A stretch of 64,000 nt of DNA from the NCBI GenBank assembly GCA_003598025.1, contig QZKH01000003.1, positions 42,048-106,047 of the forward strand, in the 5' to 3' direction. The translations under genes and the position numbers were made by a program. This DNA comes from Candidatus Omnitrophota bacterium. GTDB lineage: Bacteria; Omnitrophota; Gorgyraeia; Gygaellales; Profunditerraquicolaceae. The notes under the pieces are model-generated. The model was not told where the DNA came from. It ran no database searches and saw only the letters and a list, made by a program, of their open reading frames with translations. How positions within the stretch are numbered: the stretch's first letter is position 1; each line of letters begins with the position of its first letter. Of this stretch, positions 4,964 to 64,000 are shown in pieces.

Positions 4964-5789
4964 TGCTCATAAAGGAGATTTCGGACATATATTCATTTTG
5001 GCCGGTTCGTTGCGATTTTCCGGAGCAGCAGTTCTATGCGCAGAGGCAGCGATGCGCTGCGGGGCAGGGCTGGTAACCCTGGGGGTGCCAGAAAATGTAG
5101 CCCGTCCGATAATAAAGTTTAAGCCCAGGGAAATAATGCTCCTTCCTTTGCATGAGACAAAAGAAGGCACGTTAAGTCCGTCTGGATATAAAAAGATAAA
5201 AAATTTCGCAATTACCGCTGATATATTGGCTTTAGGGCCTGGTCTTTCTCAAAATAAATCAACCCAAACTTTAATCCGTAAGATTGTGGCCACGGTAAAT
5301 AAACCTATGGTTATCGATGCTGACGGTCTAAATGCCTTAATAGGCAACTTAGGGATTTTATCCGCTAAACCATATACGCTAAACCCTAAAATATTGACCC
5401 CTCATCCTGGAGAAATGGCAAAGCTTTTGGGCACAAGCATTAAAAAGATTCAGAAACAAAGAAAAGATGCAGCAGTAAACTTTGCTAAGAAATACAAAGT
5501 AACCGTAGTCTTAAAAGGACATAATACGATAGTCGCTGATTATAAAAATAATTTATATGTAAATAAGACCGGTAACCCCGGTATGGCTACTGCTGGAAGC
5601 GGGGATGTTTTGACTGGTATCGTGTCAGCTTTCTTAGCGCAAGGTTTGGATAGTTTTAGCGCAGCTAAATTTGGGGTGTATATTCACGGATTAGCAGGTG
5701 ATCTGGCAGCAAAAGAGAAAACGGAAATTAGCTTGATTGCTTCGGATTTAATTGGTAAAATTCCCGATGCAATAAAGATCAGTTCTTAG
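4926..5789 (+). CDS. nnrD: ADP-dependent NAD(P)H-hydrate dehydratase (YjeF C-terminal domain only)
   Basis: GHIFILAGSLRFSGAAVLCAEAAMRCGAGLVTLGVP and GNPGMATAGSGDVLTG carbohydrate-kinase-like motifs. No epimerase domain. Confidence 0.8.
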   Translation: MRLPARLLQRRPDAHKGDFGHIFILAGSLRFSGAAVLCAEAAMRCGAGLVTLGVPENVARPIIKFKPREIMLLPLHETKEGTLSPSGYKKIKNFAITADILALGPGLSQNKSTQTLIRKIVATVNKPMVIDADGLNALIGNLGILSAKPYTLNPKILTPHPGEMAKLLGTSIKKIQKQRKDAAVNFAKKYKVTVVLKGHNTIVADYKNNLYVNKTGNPGMATAGSGDVLTGIVSAFLAQGLDSFSAAKFGVYIHGLAGDLAAKEKTEISLIASDLIGKIPDAIKISS

Positions 5790-5827: not shown

Positions 5828-5900
5828 GCCGGCGTAGCTCAGTCGGTAGAGCAGCTGTTTTGTAAACAGCGGGTCGGGGGTTCGATTCCTCTCGCCGGCT
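5828..5900 (+). tRNA. tRNA-Thr (anticodon UGU)
   Basis: Cloverleaf folded by hand. Acceptor GCCGGCG/CGCCGGC, anticodon stem GCTGT/ACAGC, loop TTTGTAA, T-loop TTCGATT. 73 nt. Confidence 0.85.
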
Positions 5901-6027
5901 TAAATGAGGCCACAACTTATGGAGCAAATGAAATGAGCGAACATAAGTTGTTTGGCCGAATTTATCCCGAGTGTACGAAGCAGATTTATTGAAATCTGCG
6001 AGTGCTTACACGAGGGATGTAAAATGA

Positions 6028-6110
6028 TAGTTCATAGTTGATAGTTCATTGTTCATGGATATTGGTATATTTCTATGAACCTTGAACCATGAACTAATAT
6101 GATATGAACA
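6028..6110. repeat. Family-A palindromic repeat element. Left arm of GTTCATAG-type units, right arm of CTATGAAC/CATGAAC units.
   Basis: tagttcatagttgatagttcattgttcatgg ... ctatgaaccttgaaccatgaactaatatgatatgaac. Same architecture as the copies at 36109, 51739, 53418, 57776, 57938 and 59371. Confidence 0.75.
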
Positions 6111-6231
6111 CCCGAACCGAAAGGGGTGTGGGGAATTTCCCCACGTTGTCGGGGTGACAGCGAACATAGTGAGCGCCATAGGGGCAGAGCCCCTATGGAG
6201 AGCGAGCGGTGATTGAAGACTTGGCGAGCGA

Positions 6232-6262
6232 GGGTCGGGGGTTCGATTCCTCTCGCCGGCTT
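6232..6262 (+). repeat. 31-nt direct repeat of the 3' end of tRNA-Thr (T-arm plus acceptor 3' strand). Partner copy at 5871-5901.
   Basis: GGGTCGGGGGTTCGATTCCTCTCGCCGGCTT is identical at both sites. 330 bp of non-coding, hairpin-rich DNA lies between them. No upstream 5' acceptor strand, so this is not a second tRNA. Confidence 0.8.
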
Positions 6263-6263
6263 T

Positions 6264-6334
6264 ACAAAGTCACCAAGTCACAAGGACACACGTCACAAGT
6301 TTATGTGACGTTGTGACTTTGTGTCATTGTGACA
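6264..6334. repeat. Family-B palindromic repeat element. Left arm of GTCACAAG/GACACA units, right arm of TGTGAC/CTTTGTG units.
   Basis: caaagtcaccaagtcacaaggacacacgtcacaag ttta tgtgacgttgtgactttgtgtcattgtgac. Confidence 0.75.
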
Positions 6335-20143: not shown

Positions 20144-22945
20144 ATGGCTATAGAGCTTTCAAAGCAGTATAATCCTCACGAAGTTGAGGACAAATGGTAT
20201 TTTGACTGGGAAAAAAACGGGTATTTTAAAACCTCCCCGTCTAAGAACAGAATCCCTTTTTGTATAGTTATCCCTCCGCCTAATGTGACGGGTATTTTGC
20301 ACATGGGGCATGCTTTAAATAATACGATACAAGATATTCTTATCCGGTACCACCGCATGAATGGCGAGGCTGCTCTATGGATGCCGGGCACAGATCATGC
20401 CGGCATTGCTACTCAGAACGTCGTTGAAAAAAGTTTGGCAAGGGAGAATATTAAACGCCAGGATTTAGGCAGGGAAAAGTTTATTGAAAAAGTGTTATTA
20501 TGGAAAGACAAATACGGCTCTACGATAATTCATCAGCTTAAGAAACTGGGTGCTTCCTGTGATTGGTCAAGGGAGCGTTTTACTATGGATGAAGCGTATT
20601 CCAGGGCGGTAAAACATGTATTTGTGCGTTTGTGGGACAAGGGGCTTATTTATCAAGGGGATAAGATAATTAACTGGTGTCCTCGCTGCCAGACAGCTTT
20701 ATCTGATGAAGAAGCACCGCATCATGAACTTGATGGTCATCTTTATTATTTGAAATATCCTTTGAAGGCCGATCCTGATACTTTCATTATTGTGGCTACT
20801 ACCAGGCCGGAAACAATGCTTGGAGATACAGCCGTCGCAGTTAACCCCAGGGATAAAAGATATAAAAAATTCTTGAATAAAATCCTGTTATTGCCTTTGG
20901 TTGGCAGGGAGATAAAAGTAATCGGCGATAGTTCAGTGGATATGAAATTCGGAACCGGTGCTGTAAAAGTTACACCTGCCCATGATCCGAATGACTATAT
21001 AATGGGCAATAGGCATAAACTGAAATTTGTAAATGTTATGTATCCGGATGGCCGGATGAATGAGAATGCCGGAGAGTATAAGGGTATGGATAGGTTTGAG
21101 GCACGGGAAGTGATTATAGAAGACCTCAGAGAAAAAGGATTACTGGATAAAATAGAGCCACATGCGCTTTCTGCCGGGCATTGTTATCGTTGCCACACTA
21201 TAATTGAACCGTATCTTTCAAGGCAATGGTTCGTTAAGATGTCCCCTTTGGCAAAACCGGCAATAGAAGCTGTGAAAAAAGGTAAAATCAAATTCCATCC
21301 TAAAAGATGGACTAAGGTATATCTTAACTGGATGGAAAATATACAGGATTGGTGTATTTCACGGCAGATATGGTGGGGGCATCGCCTGCCGGTATATTAT
21401 TGTAAGGAATGTATAAAGAATGCCGGCGAGTTCACGGTTCATAGTTCACAGTTCACAGGTAAGAATAAAGCCGGTATTATAGTTTCTGAAACTAAGCTGG
21501 ATAAATGTCCTAAGTGCGGTTCATCGGATATACATCAGGAAGAAGATGTTTTAGATACATGGTTTTCTTCCTGGCTATGGCCTTTTGCTACTTTTTATTG
21601 GCCGGATTTTCAAAAGCAATCAGCCATCAGCCATCAGCCATCAGCTTTCAGCTCTCAGCTGGATAGTCTACAGTCTACCGTGCACAGTCCACCGTCCACA
21701 GACAAAGATATTTCTGCCAGGCTCAAGGCGGATTTGGATTATTTTTATCCTACATCCACTCTTGTAACTGCACCTGAGATTATCTTCTTTTGGGTAGCCA
21801 GAATGATTATGGCGGGCATGGAGTTTATGCATAATGTCCCCTTTAAGGATGTTTACATCCATGGCACAGTGCGCGATATAGAAGGCAAGAAAATGTCTAA
21901 ATCCCTGGGTAATATTATAGACCCGCTTGAGATTATAAGCCAGTACGGTGCTGATGCCCTTCGCTTTAGCCTCATATCGATTACTTCTCAGGGGCAGGAT
22001 GTATATCTTTCTAAGGACAGGTTCGAGCAGGGCAGGAATTTCGCGAATAAGCTTTGGAATGCATCGCGTTTTATACTGATGAATATGGAAGAGGCAGACT
22101 CAGGCAAAGTTAACCAAATACGTCAAAACAGCACTAATATCGTAAATAAATGGATATTAAGCAGGTACAATTCCACAATAAAACAGGTTTCATCTTATCT
22201 TAATGCATATAAATTTAATGAAGCGGCAAATGCTATTTACGGTTTCTTCTGGCACGAGTTTTGTGATTGGTATCTTGAGATTATAAAGCCGAATATAAAA
22301 GATGATGAAAGCCGGGTAATTACGCGTATTATCCTTGAGGGTACCCTTAAAATGCTGCATCCTTTCATGCCTTTTATAAGCGAAGAAATATGGCGGATGA
22401 TCCCCGGTAATACTTCTACTATAATGTTTAGCAGCTGGCCGGTTCATTCTGAGAAAGCAATAGACAAAAAGATAGAGGCCCGGGTTAATATGGTCTTTGA
22501 TGTGATTAGCAGCATAAGGAATATGCGTTCCGAGCTTGAAATAGCAGTAACTGATAAAATAAATGTTAAACTTTTTACCGGCAGCAAGCCGAATTTGGAA
22601 ACGCTTAATTTTATGAGCGGAGACATCAAATTAATGTCAAAGCTGGATAATCTCGAGATCTCTAAAGATTATAAGCCTCAGATTAACCAATATGCAAGCG
22701 TCCTAAAGGATATCCATATAATAATCCCATTGTCCGGAGTTATTGATGTAGAGAAATACCTGCTTAAACTGGGTAAGCGTATCCAGGAAGTTTCATCCCA
22801 GATTGAAGCAAAGGGCAGGACATTGGAAAATAAGGATTTTATCGCACGGGCACCAGCAGAAGTCATAAAGAAAGAACAGGATAAATTAGAAGAACTTAAA
22901 GAAACCCTGAACAAACTAAAGGTGGTGAAAGATGGTATTAAATGA
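20144..22945 (+). CDS. valS: Valine--tRNA ligase. Intact ORF that contains two in-frame short-repeat insertions.
   Basis: HMGH, KMSKS, DVLDTWFSS, FFWVARM. C-terminal coiled coil. 933 aa. Confidence 0.9.
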   Translation: MAIELSKQYNPHEVEDKWYFDWEKNGYFKTSPSKNRIPFCIVIPPPNVTGILHMGHALNNTIQDILIRYHRMNGEAALWMPGTDHAGIATQNVVEKSLARENIKRQDLGREKFIEKVLLWKDKYGSTIIHQLKKLGASCDWSRERFTMDEAYSRAVKHVFVRLWDKGLIYQGDKIINWCPRCQTALSDEEAPHHELDGHLYYLKYPLKADPDTFIIVATTRPETMLGDTAVAVNPRDKRYKKFLNKILLLPLVGREIKVIGDSSVDMKFGTGAVKVTPAHDPNDYIMGNRHKLKFVNVMYPDGRMNENAGEYKGMDRFEAREVIIEDLREKGLLDKIEPHALSAGHCYRCHTIIEPYLSRQWFVKMSPLAKPAIEAVKKGKIKFHPKRWTKVYLNWMENIQDWCISRQIWWGHRLPVYYCKECIKNAGEFTVHSSQFTGKNKAGIIVSETKLDKCPKCGSSDIHQEEDVLDTWFSSWLWPFATFYWPDFQKQSAISHQPSAFSSQLDSLQSTVHSPPSTDKDISARLKADLDYFYPTSTLVTAPEIIFFWVARMIMAGMEFMHNVPFKDVYIHGTVRDIEGKKMSKSLGNIIDPLEIISQYGADALRFSLISITSQGQDVYLSKDRFEQGRNFANKLWNASRFILMNMEEADSGKVNQIRQNSTNIVNKWILSRYNSTIKQVSSYLNAYKFNEAANAIYGFFWHEFCDWYLEIIKPNIKDDESRVITRIILEGTLKMLHPFMPFISEEIWRMIPGNTSTIMFSSWPVHSEKAIDKKIEARVNMVFDVISSIRNMRSELEIAVTDKINVKLFTGSKPNLETLNFMSGDIKLMSKLDNLEISKDYKPQINQYASVLKDIHIIIPLSGVIDVEKYLLKLGKRIQEVSSQIEAKGRTLENKDFIARAPAEVIKKEQDKLEELKETLNKLKVVKDGIK
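21428..21459 (+). repeat. Family-A octamer tandem (GTTCACGG GTTCATAG TTCACAG TTCACAGG) lying inside the valS coding sequence
   Basis: gagttcacggttcatagttcacagttcacagg is translated in frame as EFTVHSSQFTG. Confidence 0.8.
21618..21662 (+). repeat. CAGCCAT x3 / CAGCTTTCAGCTCTCAGCTG tandem repeat inside valS. Related in reverse complement to 47042-47074.
   Basis: atcagccatcagccatcagccatcagctttcagctctcagctgg encodes SAISHQPSAFSSQLD. This stretch is absent from canonical ValRS between WP(E/D) and FYPTS. Confidence 0.8.
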
Positions 22946-32494: not shown

Positions 32495-32632
32495 AGATTC
32501 ATAGTTGATTATTCATAGCTGAAGTCACAAAGACACCAGTCACAAAGACACAAAATTATTGATTTTTATTTTAGTTTTGTACGTTTATTTGTGACCTTGT
32601 GACATTGTGGCGTGTGTCCCATATAAACGTAT
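32495..32632. repeat. Composite repeat locus. Short family-A units followed by a family-B palindrome with an AT-rich centre.
   Basis: attcatagttgattattcatag then gtcacaaagacaccagtcacaaagacacaa ... gtgaccttgtgacattgtggcgtgtgtcc. Confidence 0.7.
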
Positions 32633-47041: not shown

Positions 47042-47185
47042 TGGCTGATAGCTGAGAGCGGATAGCTGAAAGCTGCATTTGTTCACAGTTCATGGTTCAT
47101 AGAAATGACTAGAGTAGTTAGTCACAAAGACACACGACACAAGGACACAAAAATCTTGAGTTCACTATTCACATTTCACGGATTG
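47042..47185. repeat. Composite repeat locus: GGCTGATAGCTGAGAGCGGATAGCTGAAAGCTG (reverse complement of the valS 21618 repeat), then family-A octamers, then the family-B left arm, then TTCAC units
   Basis: ggctgatagctgagagcggatagctgaaagctg catttgttcacagttcatggttcatag ... gtcacaaagacacacgacacaaggacacaa ... gagttcactattcacatttcacgg. Confidence 0.75.
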
Positions 47186-54906: not shown

Positions 54907-54972
54907 GGTCACAAGGACACAAGACACAAGGACACAAAAAACTGTGACTTTGTGACGTGTGACTTTGTGACT
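54907..54972. repeat. Family-B palindromic element
   Basis: gtcacaaggacacaagacacaaggacacaa aaaac tgtgactttgtgacgtgtgactttgtgac. Confidence 0.8.
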
Positions 54973-57775: not shown

Positions 57776-57850
57776 TAGTTCATTGTTCGTAGTTCATAGG
57801 GTCGTCCTTAGTCCATGAACCATGAACTAATCTATGGATTATGAACCGAT
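57776..57850. repeat. Family-A palindromic element, upstream flank of tRNA-Arg
   Basis: tagttcattgttcgtagttcatag ggtcgtccttagtc catgaaccatgaactaatctatggattatgaac. Confidence 0.75.
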
Positions 57851-57857
57851 TGATTGC

Positions 57858-57931
57858 GCCCCTGTAGCTCATAAGGATAGAGCAACGGTTTCCTAAACCG
57901 TGTGCGGCAGGTTCGATTCCTGCCAGGGGCA
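57858..57931 (+). tRNA. tRNA-Arg (anticodon CCU)
   Basis: Acceptor GCCCCTG/CAGGGGC, anticodon stem ACGGT/ACCGT with loop TTCCTAA, T-arm GCAGGTTCGATTCCTGC. 74 nt. Confidence 0.8.
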
Positions 57932-57937
57932 GTTTAC

Positions 57938-58030
57938 TTAGTTCATAGAGCTGTCCATACGTCCATGAACTATCAACCATGAACCTTGAACTAATCTATA
58001 AACCTTGAACCATCAACCATGAACTAATCT
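57938..58030. repeat. Family-A palindromic element, downstream flank of tRNA-Arg. Ends at the sigma-factor ATG.
   Basis: ttagttcatagagctgtccatacgtccatgaactatcaaccatgaaccttgaactaatctataaaccttgaaccatcaaccatgaactaatct then ATG. Confidence 0.75.
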
Positions 58031-58849
58031 ATGGAAGCCTTAAAATCATACCTCAAAGATATAAGAAGCATACGGCTTTTGACTGCCGAAGATGAAGTCC
58101 GCCTTAGCAAAAGGGTTAAAAAAGGCGATGAGATGGCGCGTAAAGAGATGATCAGGGCCAACCTGCGCCTTGTAATAAACATAGCTAAGAGATATATGTA
58201 TTTAGGTATACCTTTGCTCGACCTGATAGAAGAAGGCAATCTTGGCTTAATGAAGGCCGTGGATAAATTTGACCATAAAAAAGGTTTCAGGTTTTCTACT
58301 TATGCTGCCTGGTGGATAAAACAGGCTATAACCCGCTCAATATCTGAGCAGGGTAAGACTATCAGGGTCCCTGTGTATATGAGTGAAATAATAAGCAAGT
58401 GGAAGAAGGCAAAGGAGCATCTTTCGCAGAAACTTAAGCGTATACCGAACGACGAAGAGATCGCAAAGAATATAAAACTGCCTAAGGATAAGATTGAACA
58501 GGTTAATTTCTGGCTCACCAGTTCTACTTCCTCCCTTGAGGCTCCGGTGGGTGATGATAATGATAATCAGGTAATGGACCTGGTTGAAGATAAGACAGCC
58601 ATATCCCCAGATTCTACTATAGAGCGTTTACTGGATAAGGAGAGGGTGGATAATTTGCTGGAGATTATGACTGACAGGGAGAGGAACATACTGGACATGC
58701 GTTTCGGGCTTGCGCAAGGCAAACCGCATACGCTTGCAGAAGTGGCTGGCAAACTAAAGATTTCAAGGGAAAGGGTCCGTCAGATAGAAGAAGCAGCGCT
58801 TAGAAAATTAAGAAGGTTTGTTGAACAGCAGGAAAAGGAGTTAAAATGA
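58031..58849 (+). CDS. RNA polymerase sigma factor, sigma-70 family (regions 2-4, no region 1.1; RpoD/RpoS-like)
   Basis: DLIEEGNLGLMKAVDKFD, FSTYAAWWIKQAITRSI, region 4 HTH LAEVAGKLKISRERVRQIE. 272 aa. Confidence 0.8.
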   Translation: MEALKSYLKDIRSIRLLTAEDEVRLSKRVKKGDEMARKEMIRANLRLVINIAKRYMYLGIPLLDLIEEGNLGLMKAVDKFDHKKGFRFSTYAAWWIKQAITRSISEQGKTIRVPVYMSEIISKWKKAKEHLSQKLKRIPNDEEIAKNIKLPKDKIEQVNFWLTSSTSSLEAPVGDDNDNQVMDLVEDKTAISPDSTIERLLDKERVDNLLEIMTDRERNILDMRFGLAQGKPHTLAEVAGKLKISRERVRQIEEAALRKLRRFVEQQEKELK

Positions 58850-60817: not shown

Positions 60818-62263
60818 ATGAGTAAACGCTTAGTACTGGTTCTTGCGCTTGCATTTGTTTTCGGCGTTACTTTTTGTGCATACGCAGAAGTTCAGAATGT
60901 CAAAGTCAGCGGTGACCTTACCGTAATGGGTATATCCCGTAATGACCTGGACTTAACGAAAACAACTGGTGGCGGCGCAACAAGCAATGATGAACAGAAC
61001 AATTTTTCATCGATTGCAAGAGTAAGAATTGATGCCGACCTCACAGACAATGTAATGGCGACAATAAGGTTGATCAATGAGAGAGATTGGGACGGTGAAG
61101 ATACTACAACAACCGAAGCCAATAATATTGAAATTGATTTAGCCTATGCTACGATGAAGGAATTCTTGTATTCACCTTTATCGCTTACAATAGGCCGCCA
61201 GGAATTAAGGTATGGTAACGCATTAGTAGTTGGCGATCCTGATACCAACAACCTTGCCGCTGCATCAACATTGACCGCAGGCGATTTAAGTTTAAGAAAA
61301 TCGTTCGATGCAATTAAGGCAGTGTTGAATTATGATCCATTAACCGTTGATTTAGTTTATGCAAAGATTGACGAGAACACGATTAGAGGCGCAAATTCAA
61401 ACGATGATATTGACCTCTATGGTATTAATGCAAATTACGCATTAAACAAAGATACCACATTGGAAGGTTATATATTCTCCAAGCAAACCGGAAGCAATGC
61501 CACAAAATTCACTGCAGCTCAGAGAACTACAGGCGTCGCACTTGCTGATCCCGGCACAAAAGAAAATGATATCCATACCGTTGGTGTCAGGGTTGCTAAT
61601 ACATCTGTGAAGAATTTGATGGCACAATTAGAAGCAGCATTCCAGTTTGGTAAATACAACCCAGGTTATGACATCAATTCACAGAATGCAGCAGTTGAAG
61701 GCGACAGAAGAGCATATGCATTACAGGCTATAGCACACTATAACCTTATGGATATTGTCCCTTCAAGCTTAAGCAAGTATAAGCCGCAAGTAATGGGAAC
61801 CTATACATATTTGTCCGGTGAAAAGAACACAAGGACATCCGGAACTTATCATGGATGGGATCCAATGTTCGAAGACCAGACACCAGGCAGCCTTATTAAT
61901 GCCATATTTGGTTATTCTAACAGCCATACATTGGCTTTGACCGGTAAGGTAAATCCAATGGAAGATGTCGGCTTTAGAGTTGATTATGCAGCAGTCTGGT
62001 TAGATAAAAAATTCCCTGATACAGGCACTGCTACAGCCGGTTTCAACACCGTAAATATGAGAGGTGTTGCAGGCGCAAGCACATATACAATGACAGGAAA
62101 GAGATTTTTAGGCCAGGAATTAGATGCAACCTTGACCTATGATTATACCGAAGATGTCCAGTTTGGGCTTCGCAGCGGTATTTTCTTCCCTGGCGATGCA
62201 CTTCAGGGCAACAATGACAGGAACGCAACAGAGTTAATCGGTACAATGAAAGTTACTTTCTAA
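60818..62263 (+). CDS. Outer-membrane beta-barrel protein (putative porin / alginate-export-like)
   Basis: Signal peptide ending AYA. Alternating amphipathic beta strands. C-terminal ...KVTF with terminal Phe. Confidence 0.6.
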   Translation: MSKRLVLVLALAFVFGVTFCAYAEVQNVKVSGDLTVMGISRNDLDLTKTTGGGATSNDEQNNFSSIARVRIDADLTDNVMATIRLINERDWDGEDTTTTEANNIEIDLAYATMKEFLYSPLSLTIGRQELRYGNALVVGDPDTNNLAAASTLTAGDLSLRKSFDAIKAVLNYDPLTVDLVYAKIDENTIRGANSNDDIDLYGINANYALNKDTTLEGYIFSKQTGSNATKFTAAQRTTGVALADPGTKENDIHTVGVRVANTSVKNLMAQLEAAFQFGKYNPGYDINSQNAAVEGDRRAYALQAIAHYNLMDIVPSSLSKYKPQVMGTYTYLSGEKNTRTSGTYHGWDPMFEDQTPGSLINAIFGYSNSHTLALTGKVNPMEDVGFRVDYAAVWLDKKFPDTGTATAGFNTVNMRGVAGASTYTMTGKRFLGQELDATLTYDYTEDVQFGLRSGIFFPGDALQGNNDRNATELIGTMKVTF

Positions 62264-62284
62264 GTATCGTTATGTAGTCATAAA

Positions 62285-62317
62285 CCCTCGGGAGAGCATA
62301 TCTCCCGGGGGTTTTTT
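62285..62317 (+). terminator. Rho-independent terminator after the outer-membrane protein gene
   Basis: CCCTCGGGAGAGCATATCTCCCGGGGG then TTTTTT. Confidence 0.85.
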
Positions 62318-62324
62318 ATTACCA

Positions 62325-62355
62325 CGTCACAAAGTCACACGTCACAAAGTCACAA
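62325..62355. repeat. Family-B left arm, immediately upstream of the four-helix-bundle gene
   Basis: cgtcacaaagtcacacgtcacaaagtcacaa. Confidence 0.8.
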
Positions 62356-62357
62356 TT

Positions 62358-62711
62358 ATGGATAAAGGATACAAAAAACTTTTAGTTTGGCAGAAGGCAG
62401 ATGAATTAGCTTTACAAATTTATCTTGAGACAAAGCGATTCCCTAAAGATGAAATATATGGTGTTACTTCCCAATTAAGAAGAGCGGCTATCTCTGTCCC
62501 CACCAATATCGCTGAAGGCTCAGGTAGGCAAAACAAATCAGAATCTAAACAATTCATAAATATTTCTTTAGGCTCTTTAGCCGAAACCGAGTATTTATTA
62601 GAATTCTGTTTCCGTCTTAAATACTTAGATGAAGAAAATTTTAATAGGTTAGAAGAATTACGGAATGATGTTGGCGCCTTACTTTGGAATCTTTATAAAA
62701 GCTTTACGTAA
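62358..62711 (+). CDS. Four-helix-bundle protein of the 23S rRNA intervening-sequence protein family
   Basis: 117 aa. Typical LLVWQKA...L...Y..T..FPK.E.YGLTSQLRRAA.S...NIAEG N-terminal pattern of that family. Confidence 0.7.
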   Translation: MDKGYKKLLVWQKADELALQIYLETKRFPKDEIYGVTSQLRRAAISVPTNIAEGSGRQNKSESKQFINISLGSLAETEYLLEFCFRLKYLDEENFNRLEELRNDVGALLWNLYKSFT

Positions 62712-62781
62712 AAGTAAAATAAGTTGTTTCTTTTTGCTTTTGTGACCAGCTGCTTTTGAATAGTCAATCGTTTTCTTAACT

Positions 62782-62813
62782 TTTGTGTCCTTGTGACCTT
62801 GTGTCCTTGTGAC
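62782..62813. repeat. Family-B right arm (inverted partner of 62325-62355), downstream of the four-helix-bundle gene
   Basis: tttgtgtccttgtgaccttgtgtccttgtgac. Confidence 0.8.
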
Positions 62814-62855
62814 CCATTACTTTATAGTATGCTATATCTCTCTTTTATCTTCCAC

Positions 62856-64000
62856 ATGCACCAGCCTTATTACAAGGACATCCTGACACAGGAAAGCCCG
62901 GTTCCCTGGGTGCGGCTGCATGGCACCAAGGATTACCTGGATATGGTGGCAATATTAAAGAATTACCCTAAAATCCACCAAACATTTAATGTAGTTCCGT
63001 CGCTGCTTGAGCAAATAGATGATTATCTTAACCGCAATGTAAAAGACAAATACCTGCACTTATCATATAAAGAAGCAGCTGCGCTAACAAGCGAAGAGAA
63101 AAAATTCATCATTAATAATTTCTTCAGTATAAACAAAGAGAAGGTGATTTTATTTCATCCCCGATATTATGACCTATACCTTAAAAGGCAGAAGAACCAG
63201 GCTTTTAATACACAGGATTACCTTGATCTTCAGGTATGGTTTAATTTAGCATGGATAGACCCCACAACCCGTAATAGCTTTGAAGACTTAAAAAGAATAC
63301 TTGTCAAAGAAAGGTTCTTCACTGAAGAAGAAAAGCATCTTGTCCTGGATAAGCATCTTGAGATACTTGAAGAGATAATCCCGACTTACAAGAAATTTCT
63401 CGAATCCGGGCAGATTGAACTTACTACAAATCCGTATTATCATCCGATATTGCCTCTGCTTTGCAACACCAGGACAGCCAGGCAGGCCAACAGGAGGACA
63501 TTGCTGCCGGAATTAAACTTTCAATATCCCCAGGATGCAAAGTCCCAGGTTGATGAAGCAGTGAAATTCCATAAAGAGAAATTTGGAGTATTGCCTTTAG
63601 GTATGTGGCCTTCGGAAGAATCGGTTAGCGAGCGGATTGTCCCGGGCCTCATTGAATCCGGGATTAAATGGATAGTTACTGACGAAGCGATACTTTTTAA
63701 ATCATTAAAGCTTAAGAATAGGGATACAACGTTATTATACCAGCCGCATTTACTTAAAAGGAAATGCGGTAATCTCACAGTAATCTTTAGAGACAGGAAT
63801 CTTTCTGACCTGATAGGATTTAACTACAGTAATATGGATTCATCGGAGGCTGCCGAAGATTTCATGGCACACCTTAAGAACATTTCAACTGCTTTTAAGG
63901 ATAAAGATATACTTGTGACCATCGCCATGGATGGAGAGAATGCCTGGGAATATTTTAGGTATGACGGCCATGAATTTTTAAACGAGCTTTATTCCAGGTT
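62856..64000 (+). CDS. Glycoside hydrolase family 57 protein (alpha-glucan branching enzyme / amylase family). 3'-truncated by the window end. Not in the ORF track because the window ends before any stop codon.
   Basis: Open frame translated by hand with no stop: MHQPYYKD..., TNPYYHPILPL, GMWPSEESVSE (nucleophile-Glu region), AMDGENAWEY (acid/base region). Confidence 0.7.
   Translation, partial: MHQPYYKDILTQESPVPWVRLHGTKDYLDMVAILKNYPKIHQTFNVVPSLLEQIDDYLNRNVKDKYLHLSYKEAAALTSEEKKFIINNFFSINKEKVILFHPRYYDLYLKRQKNQAFNTQDYLDLQVWFNLAWIDPTTRNSFEDLKRILVKERFFTEEEKHLVLDKHLEILEEIIPTYKKFLESGQIELTTNPYYHPILPLLCNTRTARQANRRTLLPELNFQYPQDAKSQVDEAVKFHKEKFGVLPLGMWPSEESVSERIVPGLIESGIKWIVTDEAILFKSLKLKNRDTTLLYQPHLLKRKCGNLTVIFRDRNLSDLIGFNYSNMDSSEAAEDFMAHLKNISTAFKDKDILVTIAMDGENAWEYFRYDGHEFLNELYSR

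Follow-up and report, generated by a model that had tools for sequence, protein, structure and literature searches.

In a 64,000-nt stretch of Candidatus Omnitrophota DNA (contig QZKH01000003.1; hereafter the window, whose coordinates are used throughout), a gene for a 117-aa four-helix-bundle protein (open reading frame (ORF) 62358-62711, plus strand) is enclosed by an inverted left arm and right arm. It is very probable that this element is an extra-ribosomal cassette of the intervening sequence (IVS) type, that is, a conserved four-helix-bundle gene placed between inverted short-tandem arrays. Arms and gene are present or absent together at two unrelated sites, and the same architecture with the same polarity surrounds most homologues of the gene in many phyla. 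As an IVS-type element outside ribosomal RNA (rRNA) with arms built as octamer arrays, the cassette is a novel form of an element type that is already known. The full explanation that we develop below, which includes the inferred movement of the block, processing of its stem, binding of the stem by the protein and the origin of gene-less derivatives, is one that we favour with moderate confidence.

The four-helix-bundle gene and its flanking arms

The left arm consists of two copies of CACGTCACAAAGTCA (62323-62354/5) and the right arm of two copies of TTGTGTCCTTGTGACC (62783-62814), both reported by Tandem Repeats Finder as 2.0-2.1 copies with 100% match. Each arm has four cores, at intervals of 8-7-8 nt in the left arm and 8-8-8 nt in the right one, and the sense strand of the left arm is A-rich and T-poor. 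The inversion is imperfect, with 25 of 31 positions complementary, and the Smith-Waterman score between the arms is 30, whereas 100 shuffles average 16.5 and reach 22 at most. As RNA, the arms form a duplex of -30.6 kcal/mol, against -9.6 +/- 2.7 kcal/mol for shuffled arms and -19.8 kcal/mol for the best shuffle, and 0.15% of random genomic 43-mers pair equally well with the left arm. In both the minimum-free-energy and the centroid fold of 62300-62840 the arms are paired around the ORF, forming an imperfect stem of ~31 bp; a long stem of this kind, made by terminal inverted repeats, is a defining feature of IVS elements. The fold of the whole 541-nt cassette is unremarkable (z -0.81), indicating that the signal lies in the terminal stem and not in the ORF interior. 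Among 52 genes of the window that were scored, the four-helix-bundle gene alone has an inverted-repeat score of at least 27 between its flanks.

An earlier, sequence-only reading of this DNA had predicted a long stem enclosing the ORF, with a left arm that ends 2 nt before the start codon. The folds agree with the first point and the letters with the second: the arm is followed by TT and then by the ATG at 62358. The arm coordinates given there are also correct in general, except that the 29-mer of the right arm spans 62785-62813 and not 62782-62813, a slip of 3 nt. The same reading placed the gene outside rRNA and downstream of the terminator of an outer-membrane-protein gene. Indeed, an Rfam scan finds no rRNA in the window, and the cassette is adjoined by a porin gene, with its terminator at 62282-62314, and a GH57 glycoside hydrolase gene, so that it does not lie in a helix of 23S rRNA. 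No Shine-Dalgarno-like motif is seen upstream of the four-helix-bundle ATG. We also considered a strand preference arising from G-U pairing and rejected it, since the other hairpins show no consistent strand bias, even though antisense RNA gives the more stable cassette stem (-37.3 kcal/mol vs -30.6 kcal/mol in sense).

The assignment of the protein to the 23S IVS protein family, also proposed from the sequence, is confirmed by profile matches above cut-off to PF05635 ('23S rRNA-intervening sequence protein'; E 1.3e-37, 128.7 bits, cut-off 33.8, residues 6-109) and TIGR02436 ('four helix bundle protein'; 117.6 bits, cut-off 24). The conserved RxxxSxxxNxxE motif of the family (PMC3936711, citing Lin et al. 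2006) is present as R42-S46-N50-E53 in QLRRAAISVPTNIAEG. Across 50 homologous sequences S46, N50 and E53 are invariant, R42 is at least 90% conserved, and 30 columns are invariant. Among solved structures, the pentameric Xcc0516 (2GSC, E 5.4e-18) is the closest, 2RLD is also matched, and homology to these two predicts a homopentamer for the 117-aa protein. More than 2,000 clusters match the query at E <= 1e-10, and an identical (100%) protein is recorded from a Candidatus Omnitrophota metagenome-assembled genome (MAG).

To our knowledge, PF05635/TIGR02436 proteins have solved structures but no known function outside diversity-generating retroelements (DGRs). Models of the DGR protein Avd score below cut-off here (NF033474, 32.4 vs 80; PF22296, 21.7 vs 40), and the PHROGs match is phrog_3206, 'Avd protein of DGR' (E 1.6e-9). 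These sub-cut-off scores, together with the porin and GH57 neighbours that are syntenic in relatives, led us to reject a DGR remnant. A role in anti-phage defence was likewise rejected, since no family among the PADLOC defence models matches at E <= 0.01.

Filled and empty sites and the framing of homologous genes

The junction between the porin and GH57 genes can be compared with three relatives (L066, L067 and L068) whose porin orthologues are 62-65% identical to that of the window. In L066 and L068 the GH57 start codon comes 2-3 nt behind the conserved porin terminator (...GGGGGTTTTTTATTGC), and in L067 the gap is filled by ~60 nt of unrelated AT-rich sequence. Neither a four-helix-bundle gene nor any arm is found at this junction in the three relatives. 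The window thus differs from them by one block, ~62323-62820, which holds both arms and the gene. Since the relatives lack the arms and the gene alike, arms and gene form one insertion or deletion unit. Tandem Repeats Finder detects no 7-8-nt arrays in ~16 kb of syntenic DNA from L066 and L068, so that the repeat expansion is specific to the lineage of the window.

A second site is offered by L023 and L024, where arms and gene occupy the ~520 nt that separate lepA from lepB, measured from stop to start codon. The lepA stop and the start of the left arm are 6 nt apart, and the right arm starts at the four-helix-bundle stop. In L081-L083, whose LepA proteins are 72-74% identical, the gap between lepA and lepB is only 9, 26 and 35 nt. 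The two comparisons of filled and empty sites lend support to the mobile cassette that the sequence-only reading had envisaged. Flanks that share a 5-mer direct repeat make up 18% of 38 cassettes, compared with 9% under the null; this difference is unconvincing, and we discarded target-site duplication as a general feature, the ATTAC duplication at the present cassette being unproven.

The framing extends to homologous genes in other genomes. A scan of one genome per species gave 65 loci with 45-78% identity, 51 of them scorable, in MAGs labelled Omnitrophota, Planctomycetota, Elusimicrobiota, Nitrospirota, Nitrospinota, WOR-3, Gemmatimonadota, candidate phyla radiation (CPR) and others. The framing score aligns the 150 nt in front of a gene with the reverse-complemented 200 nt behind it, with a threshold of at least 27. 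By this score 37 of the 51 homologous loci (73%) are framed, which answers across genomes the question that the sequence-only reading had posed for other copies within the source genome. The neighbouring genes that serve as controls are framed in 20 of 364 cases (5.5%; Mann-Whitney p = 3e-19), and three of these 'controls' are further four-helix-bundle paralogues. The statement that the family normally resides inside 23S rRNA does not hold for these relatives, as none of the 20 homologous loci scanned lies in rRNA.

The arms of the homologous loci are almost always arrays of 7-8-nt units. While these units vary by locus (GTCACAAG, GCACCAGA, GTCTCAAG, AGAGCATA, GTAACAAG, GCGGCAGA, GTGTCAGA and others), the two arms within each locus stay complementary. 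Paralogues inside single MAGs have the same repeat unit (L023/L035, L006, L010), and arm units drift along with protein divergence across loci. The left arm ends at most 10 nt from the start codon in 8 of 41 cassettes and the right arm starts at most 10 nt from the stop codon in 16 of them. The A-rich, T-poor strand lies upstream in 37 of the 41 (p = 1e-7), a fixed polarity that would not result if symmetric hairpins captured genes at random. In 17 of 37 loci, extra copies of the locus's own arm lie within ~5 kb, frequently arranged as inverted pairs a short distance apart.

A collection of plasmids adds a further set of homologues, with 24 of 26 matching records cyanobacterial and mostly from heterocyst-forming genera. 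In each of the ten plasmid loci examined, the gene is adjoined by a tandem 6-8-nt array on one side or both, and five have clear inverted pairs, namely Calothrix (unit GGGTGTA, inverted-pair score 56), Anabaena sp. 90 (GGTGACA, 52), Geminocystis (46), Stanieria (30) and Picosynechococcus (29). These arrays resemble the short tandemly repeated repetitive (STRR) heptamers long known in cyanobacteria, which were reportedly described by Mazel and colleagues in 1990. We know of no explanation so far for short tandem 7-8-nt arrays such as STRRs. Several of the plasmid four-helix-bundle genes sit between cas genes (cas10-cmr3, cas6-cas4), and 23S_rRNA_IVP genes in cas loci have been reported before (PMC3936711).

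The comparison of flanks also returned genes of other kinds. Another of the framed controls, in L036 (6560-7360), is an IS200/RAYT-like gene with the HxH motif NHFHLIV that stands between classical repetitive extragenic palindromes (REPs; AACCCTTCTCACTTACGAGGTGAGAAGGGT). Detection of this known arrangement of REPs with REP-associated tyrosine transposases (RAYTs) serves as a positive control for the method. A link between the cassette and RAYT transposases gains no support from these loci or from the 64 kb of the window: the L036 gene, the one RAYT-like gene with a high score, has ordinary REPs and not tandem arrays at its sides, and the window contains no RAYT-like gene. Two other small genes score as inverted-repeat-framed: a 98-aa gene in L025 (789-1085), which we take to be GIY-YIG-like, and a 152-aa gene in L026 (6314-6772), presumably GxxExxY/PD-(D/E)XK-like, both read from sequence alone. 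Other small selfish genes may share inverted-repeat framing.

The genomic setting and family-B repeats in the window

The cassette and its surroundings are listed in Table 1. The stem of the porin terminator (62282-62314) is followed by a T-run and is conserved in relatives, and the insertion starts directly behind it (terminator scan and alignment). Downstream, 71 nt separate the four-helix-bundle stop codon from the right arm, and 15 nt separate the right arm from the GH57 ATG. All gene-like ORFs of the 64 kb lie on the plus strand. In the relatives, the GH57 start (5503 in L066; 2897 in L068) stands 2-3 nt behind the T-run of the porin terminator and ATTGC, which leaves no space for a Shine-Dalgarno motif or a promoter of its own, and the GH57 gene of the window also lacks a Shine-Dalgarno-like motif. 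Expression of GH57 may rely on terminator read-through or on leaderless initiation. In another relative (L069, 5500-9470), the place of GH57 behind the porin terminator is taken by two AbiEii-type toxin-antitoxin pairs together with a Fic/RhuM gene, and a solo family-B-like arm (TGTGACTTTGTGTCCTTGTGGCC, ~5631-5653) precedes these genes. The porin-terminator junction thus looks like a hotspot for insertions.

Table 1. Coordinates of the cassette, its neighbours and other family-B repeats in the window
Feature	Coordinates	Strand	Basis or remark
Alginate-export-family porin gene, upstream neighbour, outside the cassette	60818..62263	+	ORF; homologues with PF13372; orthologues in L066-L069
Intrinsic terminator of the porin gene, 14-bp GC-rich stem and T-run	62282..62320	+	terminator scan; alignment with L066-L069
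ATTAC, candidate 5-bp target duplication (weak)	62318..62322, again 62816-62820	+	direct reading vs empty sites
Left arm, 2 perfect 15-nt copies; GWCAC cores at 62326, 62334, 62341, 62349	62323..62355	+	
Four-helix-bundle gene, 117 aa, PF05635 / TIGR02436	62358..62711	+	profile matches
3' spacer within the cassette	62712..62782	+	degenerate arm unit at 62732-62747
Right arm, 2 perfect 16-nt copies; GTGWC cores at 62785, 62793, 62801, 62809	62783..62814	+	reverse complement of left-arm family
GH57 glycoside hydrolase gene, downstream neighbour (ATG at 62829), runs off the window	62829..64000	+	ATG directly behind porin terminator in relatives
Family-B hairpin without gene, 4+4 cores, ~10-nt loop	6261..6333	+	-32.2 kcal/mol, z -4.0
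Family-B hairpin without gene, 37-nt AT-rich loop	32522..32611	+	z -2.6
Family-B hairpin without gene, 6-nt loop	54908..54972	+	-32.6 kcal/mol, z -6.7
Solo family-B arm, four cores, no partner arm found	47121..47151	+	

The repeat family of the arms, here called family B, recurs in the window: the 14-mer GTCACAAAGTCACA has 27 occurrences with at most 3 mismatches, compared with 3.15 expected. A layout of four cores is common to most family-B arms, the right arm at 32589-32611 being degenerate. The two flanks of the cassette each amount to half a family-B hairpin; they face opposite ways and have equal numbers of cores. The right arm of the 54908-54972 hairpin is the exact reverse complement of the cassette left arm. 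An exact copy of the cassette left arm is also found as a loop-less, gene-less hairpin in an unrelated 4.5-kb metagenomic contig (L070), the only contig with the exact 29-nt arm that a metagenome scan returned. The link between family-B repeats and the gene that had been suggested from the sequence is supported by the framing and by the shared units of paralogues, and is qualified by the family-B hairpins that occur without the gene. We rejected the 32522-32611 hairpin as a deletion derivative with the ORF ends in its loop, because the alignment of this loop with the cassette does not rise above chance: scores at least equal to it come from 25% of shuffles and 12% of genomic controls.

Of the window's 16 intergenic gaps that exceed 60 nt, 10 carry tandem arrays of 7-8-nt units from at least four sequence families, with AGTTCAT, AGCCATC and AGTCCAC among the other 7-nt families. 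Heptamer arrays are also seen in coding sequence. A 933-aa ORF (20144-22945), which we take to be a valyl-tRNA synthetase by its motifs, contains GTTCACA x4, AGCCATC x4 and AGTCCAC x5 in frame (21429-21458 and 21615-21701), encoding stretches such as QSAISHQPSAFSSQLDSLQSTVHSPPST; tandem arrays are thus not limited to intergenic DNA.

Two tRNA genes lie close to repeats. The last ~30 nt of tRNA-Thr(TGT) (5828-5900; GGGTCGGGGGTTCGATTCCTCTCGCCGGCT) recur at 6233-6262. In the ~330 nt between the two copies there are a family-A heptamer hairpin (6025-6095) and a segment (6100-6230) that is rich in GC, appears structured and has no Rfam match. The repeated tRNA end resembles the att-type duplication that integration of a small element at the tRNA 3' end would leave, and the family-B hairpin 6261-6333 begins right behind it. 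The second gene, tRNA-Arg(CCT) (57858-57931), lies between family-A heptamer arrays (57776-58036) and is flanked on both sides, in direct orientation, by the near-identical module CATGAACTAATCTATGGA. The junction between the pyruvate phosphate dikinase (PPDK) and sigma70 genes measures 7 nt in L066 and 62 nt in L069 and holds no tRNA in either, so tRNA-Arg and its arrays were inserted here or lost elsewhere.

Competing explanations and comparison with known systems

In the explanation that we favour, the cassette would be a selfish stem-looped unit that is gained or lost as a block. Read-through from a neighbouring gene would yield cassette RNA that folds into a long stem-loop, and RNase III would cut the base of the stem, releasing the ORF-bearing loop while the host RNA parts stay functional. 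Such processing, suggested by analogy with rRNA IVSs, is a serious possibility that we rate as somewhat short of probable. A stem that can be cut would explain how these elements are tolerated in rRNA, in operons (lepA-lepB, cas10-cmr3) and beside terminators. The pentameric protein may in turn bind the periodically mismatched cassette stem. Binding of the protein to its own flanking stem is predicted because the protein is homologous to Avd, which grips an RNA stem-loop with five protomers, and we offer it tentatively, as a rather doubtful step. The gene-less family-B hairpins would be ORF-less derivatives or non-autonomous copies. A broader proposal, which we regard as speculative and unlikely, is that the IVS/Avd-like protein acts in trans as the partner of short tandem-repeat hairpins, much as RAYTs do for REP-based hairpins (REPINs), with the pentamer promoting their spread, maintenance or processing. 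If this were true, ORF cassettes would be autonomous and the dispersed tandem-repeat hairpins their non-autonomous offspring, which would include cyanobacterial STRR heptamers, ORF-less rRNA IVSs and the arrays in structural RNAs and coding genes.

Several observations weigh against the selfish-cassette explanation. The inverted repeat is weak or undetectable in about a quarter of the homologous loci; these loci are not phylogenetically independent, and the taxonomic labels of the MAGs may be unreliable. At a plasmid locus of Pseudanabaena galeata (L077, cas6-cas4) the arrays are direct, with ~15 copies of AAAGCTA upstream and ~10 of AAAGCCA downstream. The genomes with empty sites are only 62-74% identical to the filled ones in the flanking proteins, and because the empty alleles come from such fairly distant genomes, a two-step history, with the hairpin first and the gene later, would also fit. 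No consistent target-site duplication was found among the 38 cassettes, no mobility enzyme was identified for the cassette, and we know of no catalytic activity in the PF05635 family. The gene lies directly behind a terminator, with no sigma-70-like promoter upstream of the cassette. Neither RNA strand is consistently more stable, and fold energies therefore give no sign of selection on the sense transcript.

The two-step history would make family B an independent REP- or STRR-like host repeat, with a selfish gene homing into hairpin loops and the arms representing its split target. The complete gene-less family-B hairpins with 4+4 cores at three window sites and in L070, the arrays in 10 of 16 intergenic gaps and the location of rRNA IVSs at the tips of rRNA hairpins (PMC4990558) can all be read in this way. 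Yet the orthologous sites in relatives hold neither hairpin nor gene, the stem arms of rRNA IVSs are not part of the uninterrupted rRNA (PMC4990558), and arm units drift together with protein divergence. The polarity fixed in 37 of 41 cassettes is likewise unlike random entry into a symmetric hairpin, and on this evidence we consider the hairpin-first order unlikely.

It is less likely still that the arms act as DNA, either as single-strand or cruciform sites recognized by a trans-acting recombinase or transposase (as in REPIN/RAYT, IS200/IS605 or integron attC systems) or as operator or iteron sites for the encoded protein. IS608 targets TTAC, and TTAC stands directly 5' of the left arm and of the 6261 hairpin but is absent at other family-B sites. 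The dispersed hairpins with imperfect stems would suit a DNA-level role, as would the analogous architecture of the REP-flanked RAYT gene in L036, although its flanks are ordinary REPs and not arrays of tandem units. Against such a role, the window has no RAYT- or IS200-like gene, and neither a consistent target duplication nor an end motif recurs across loci. A chance juxtaposition of the gene between repeat-rich spacers is very improbable, even with arrays in so many of the intergenic gaps, given that the flanks are matching hairpin halves in opposite orientation with equal core numbers, that 1 of 52 window genes is framed, that framing separates homologues from controls (73% vs 5.5%) and that relatives lack arms and gene together.

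Read as an extra-ribosomal IVS-type cassette, the element has implications beyond this genome. A very large family of unknown function that is systematically embedded in inverted short-tandem arrays across phyla is of more interest than a single cassette, and framing with fixed polarity together with the behaviour of an insertion or deletion unit turns the vague idea of a 'selfish IVS' into a testable model. The flanking stem is a candidate nucleic-acid ligand of the protein, consistent with the RNA stem-loop held by Avd, and the origin of STRR-like repeats becomes experimentally approachable. Our literature search, whose coverage is incomplete, found no account of inverted tandem-repeat framing of extra-ribosomal family members, or of a link between the family and STRRs, beyond the Coxiella IVS.

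The 23S IVSs of Coxiella and Leptospira share with the cassette a PF05635 ORF inside terminal inverted repeats, with a stem of ~28-31 bp. The IVS of Coxiella burnetii encodes the homologous S23p, and RNase III cuts the 28-bp stem that the IVS termini form. Just ahead of the S23p ATG stand 2-3 tandem GACAGAT heptamers, their number differing from strain to strain, and the 5' RNase III site falls at the first of them (PMC4990558). The heptamers and the 28-bp stem support the parallel with an IVS that the sequence-only reading had drawn, and in both elements tandem repeats abut the ATG and a Shine-Dalgarno motif is weak or missing. An older hypothesis relayed in the same work regards IVSs as mobile elements whose ORF serves mobility (PMC4990558). 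The cassette differs in lying outside rRNA, between a porin terminator and GH57, and in its octamer units. Its ORF is intact and highly conserved, whereas S23p is decaying in Coxiella, and its predicted stem resembles an RNase III substrate in pairing and duplex energy, whereas cutting is known in Coxiella. Insertions at scattered sites in CPR rRNA also carry a PF05635-type domain (bioRxiv 10.1101/2024.02.27.582315).

Other systems share parts of this organization. Avd is a positively charged pentamer in which all five protomers contact an 11-bp RNA stem-loop and flipped-out RNA bases sit in crevices between protomers (bioRxiv 10.1101/2023.10.23.563531). The DGR Avd of Bordetella phage BPP-1 (bAvd) has a homologous pentameric four-helix-bundle fold, but the cassette lacks an adjacent reverse transcriptase and a pair of template and variable repeats, its neighbours being porin and GH57. 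REP/REPIN-RAYT systems and miniature inverted-repeat transposable elements resemble the cassette in their dispersed intergenic hairpins, in a gene framed by inverted repeat copies and in gene-less copies that outnumber gene-bearing ones. In the cassette, however, the arms are arrays of 7-8-nt units where a REP is a single palindrome, the framed gene is not an HUH/Y1 transposase and there is no clear target duplication. Finally, STRRs are similar as intergenic 7-nt tandem arrays with several sequence families per genome, and heptamer arrays of this sort directly flank four-helix-bundle genes on cyanobacterial plasmids. STRRs have been described without reference to four-helix-bundle genes or inverted pairs, and the present cassette, whose arms use 7-8-nt units, belongs to a Candidatus Omnitrophota host.

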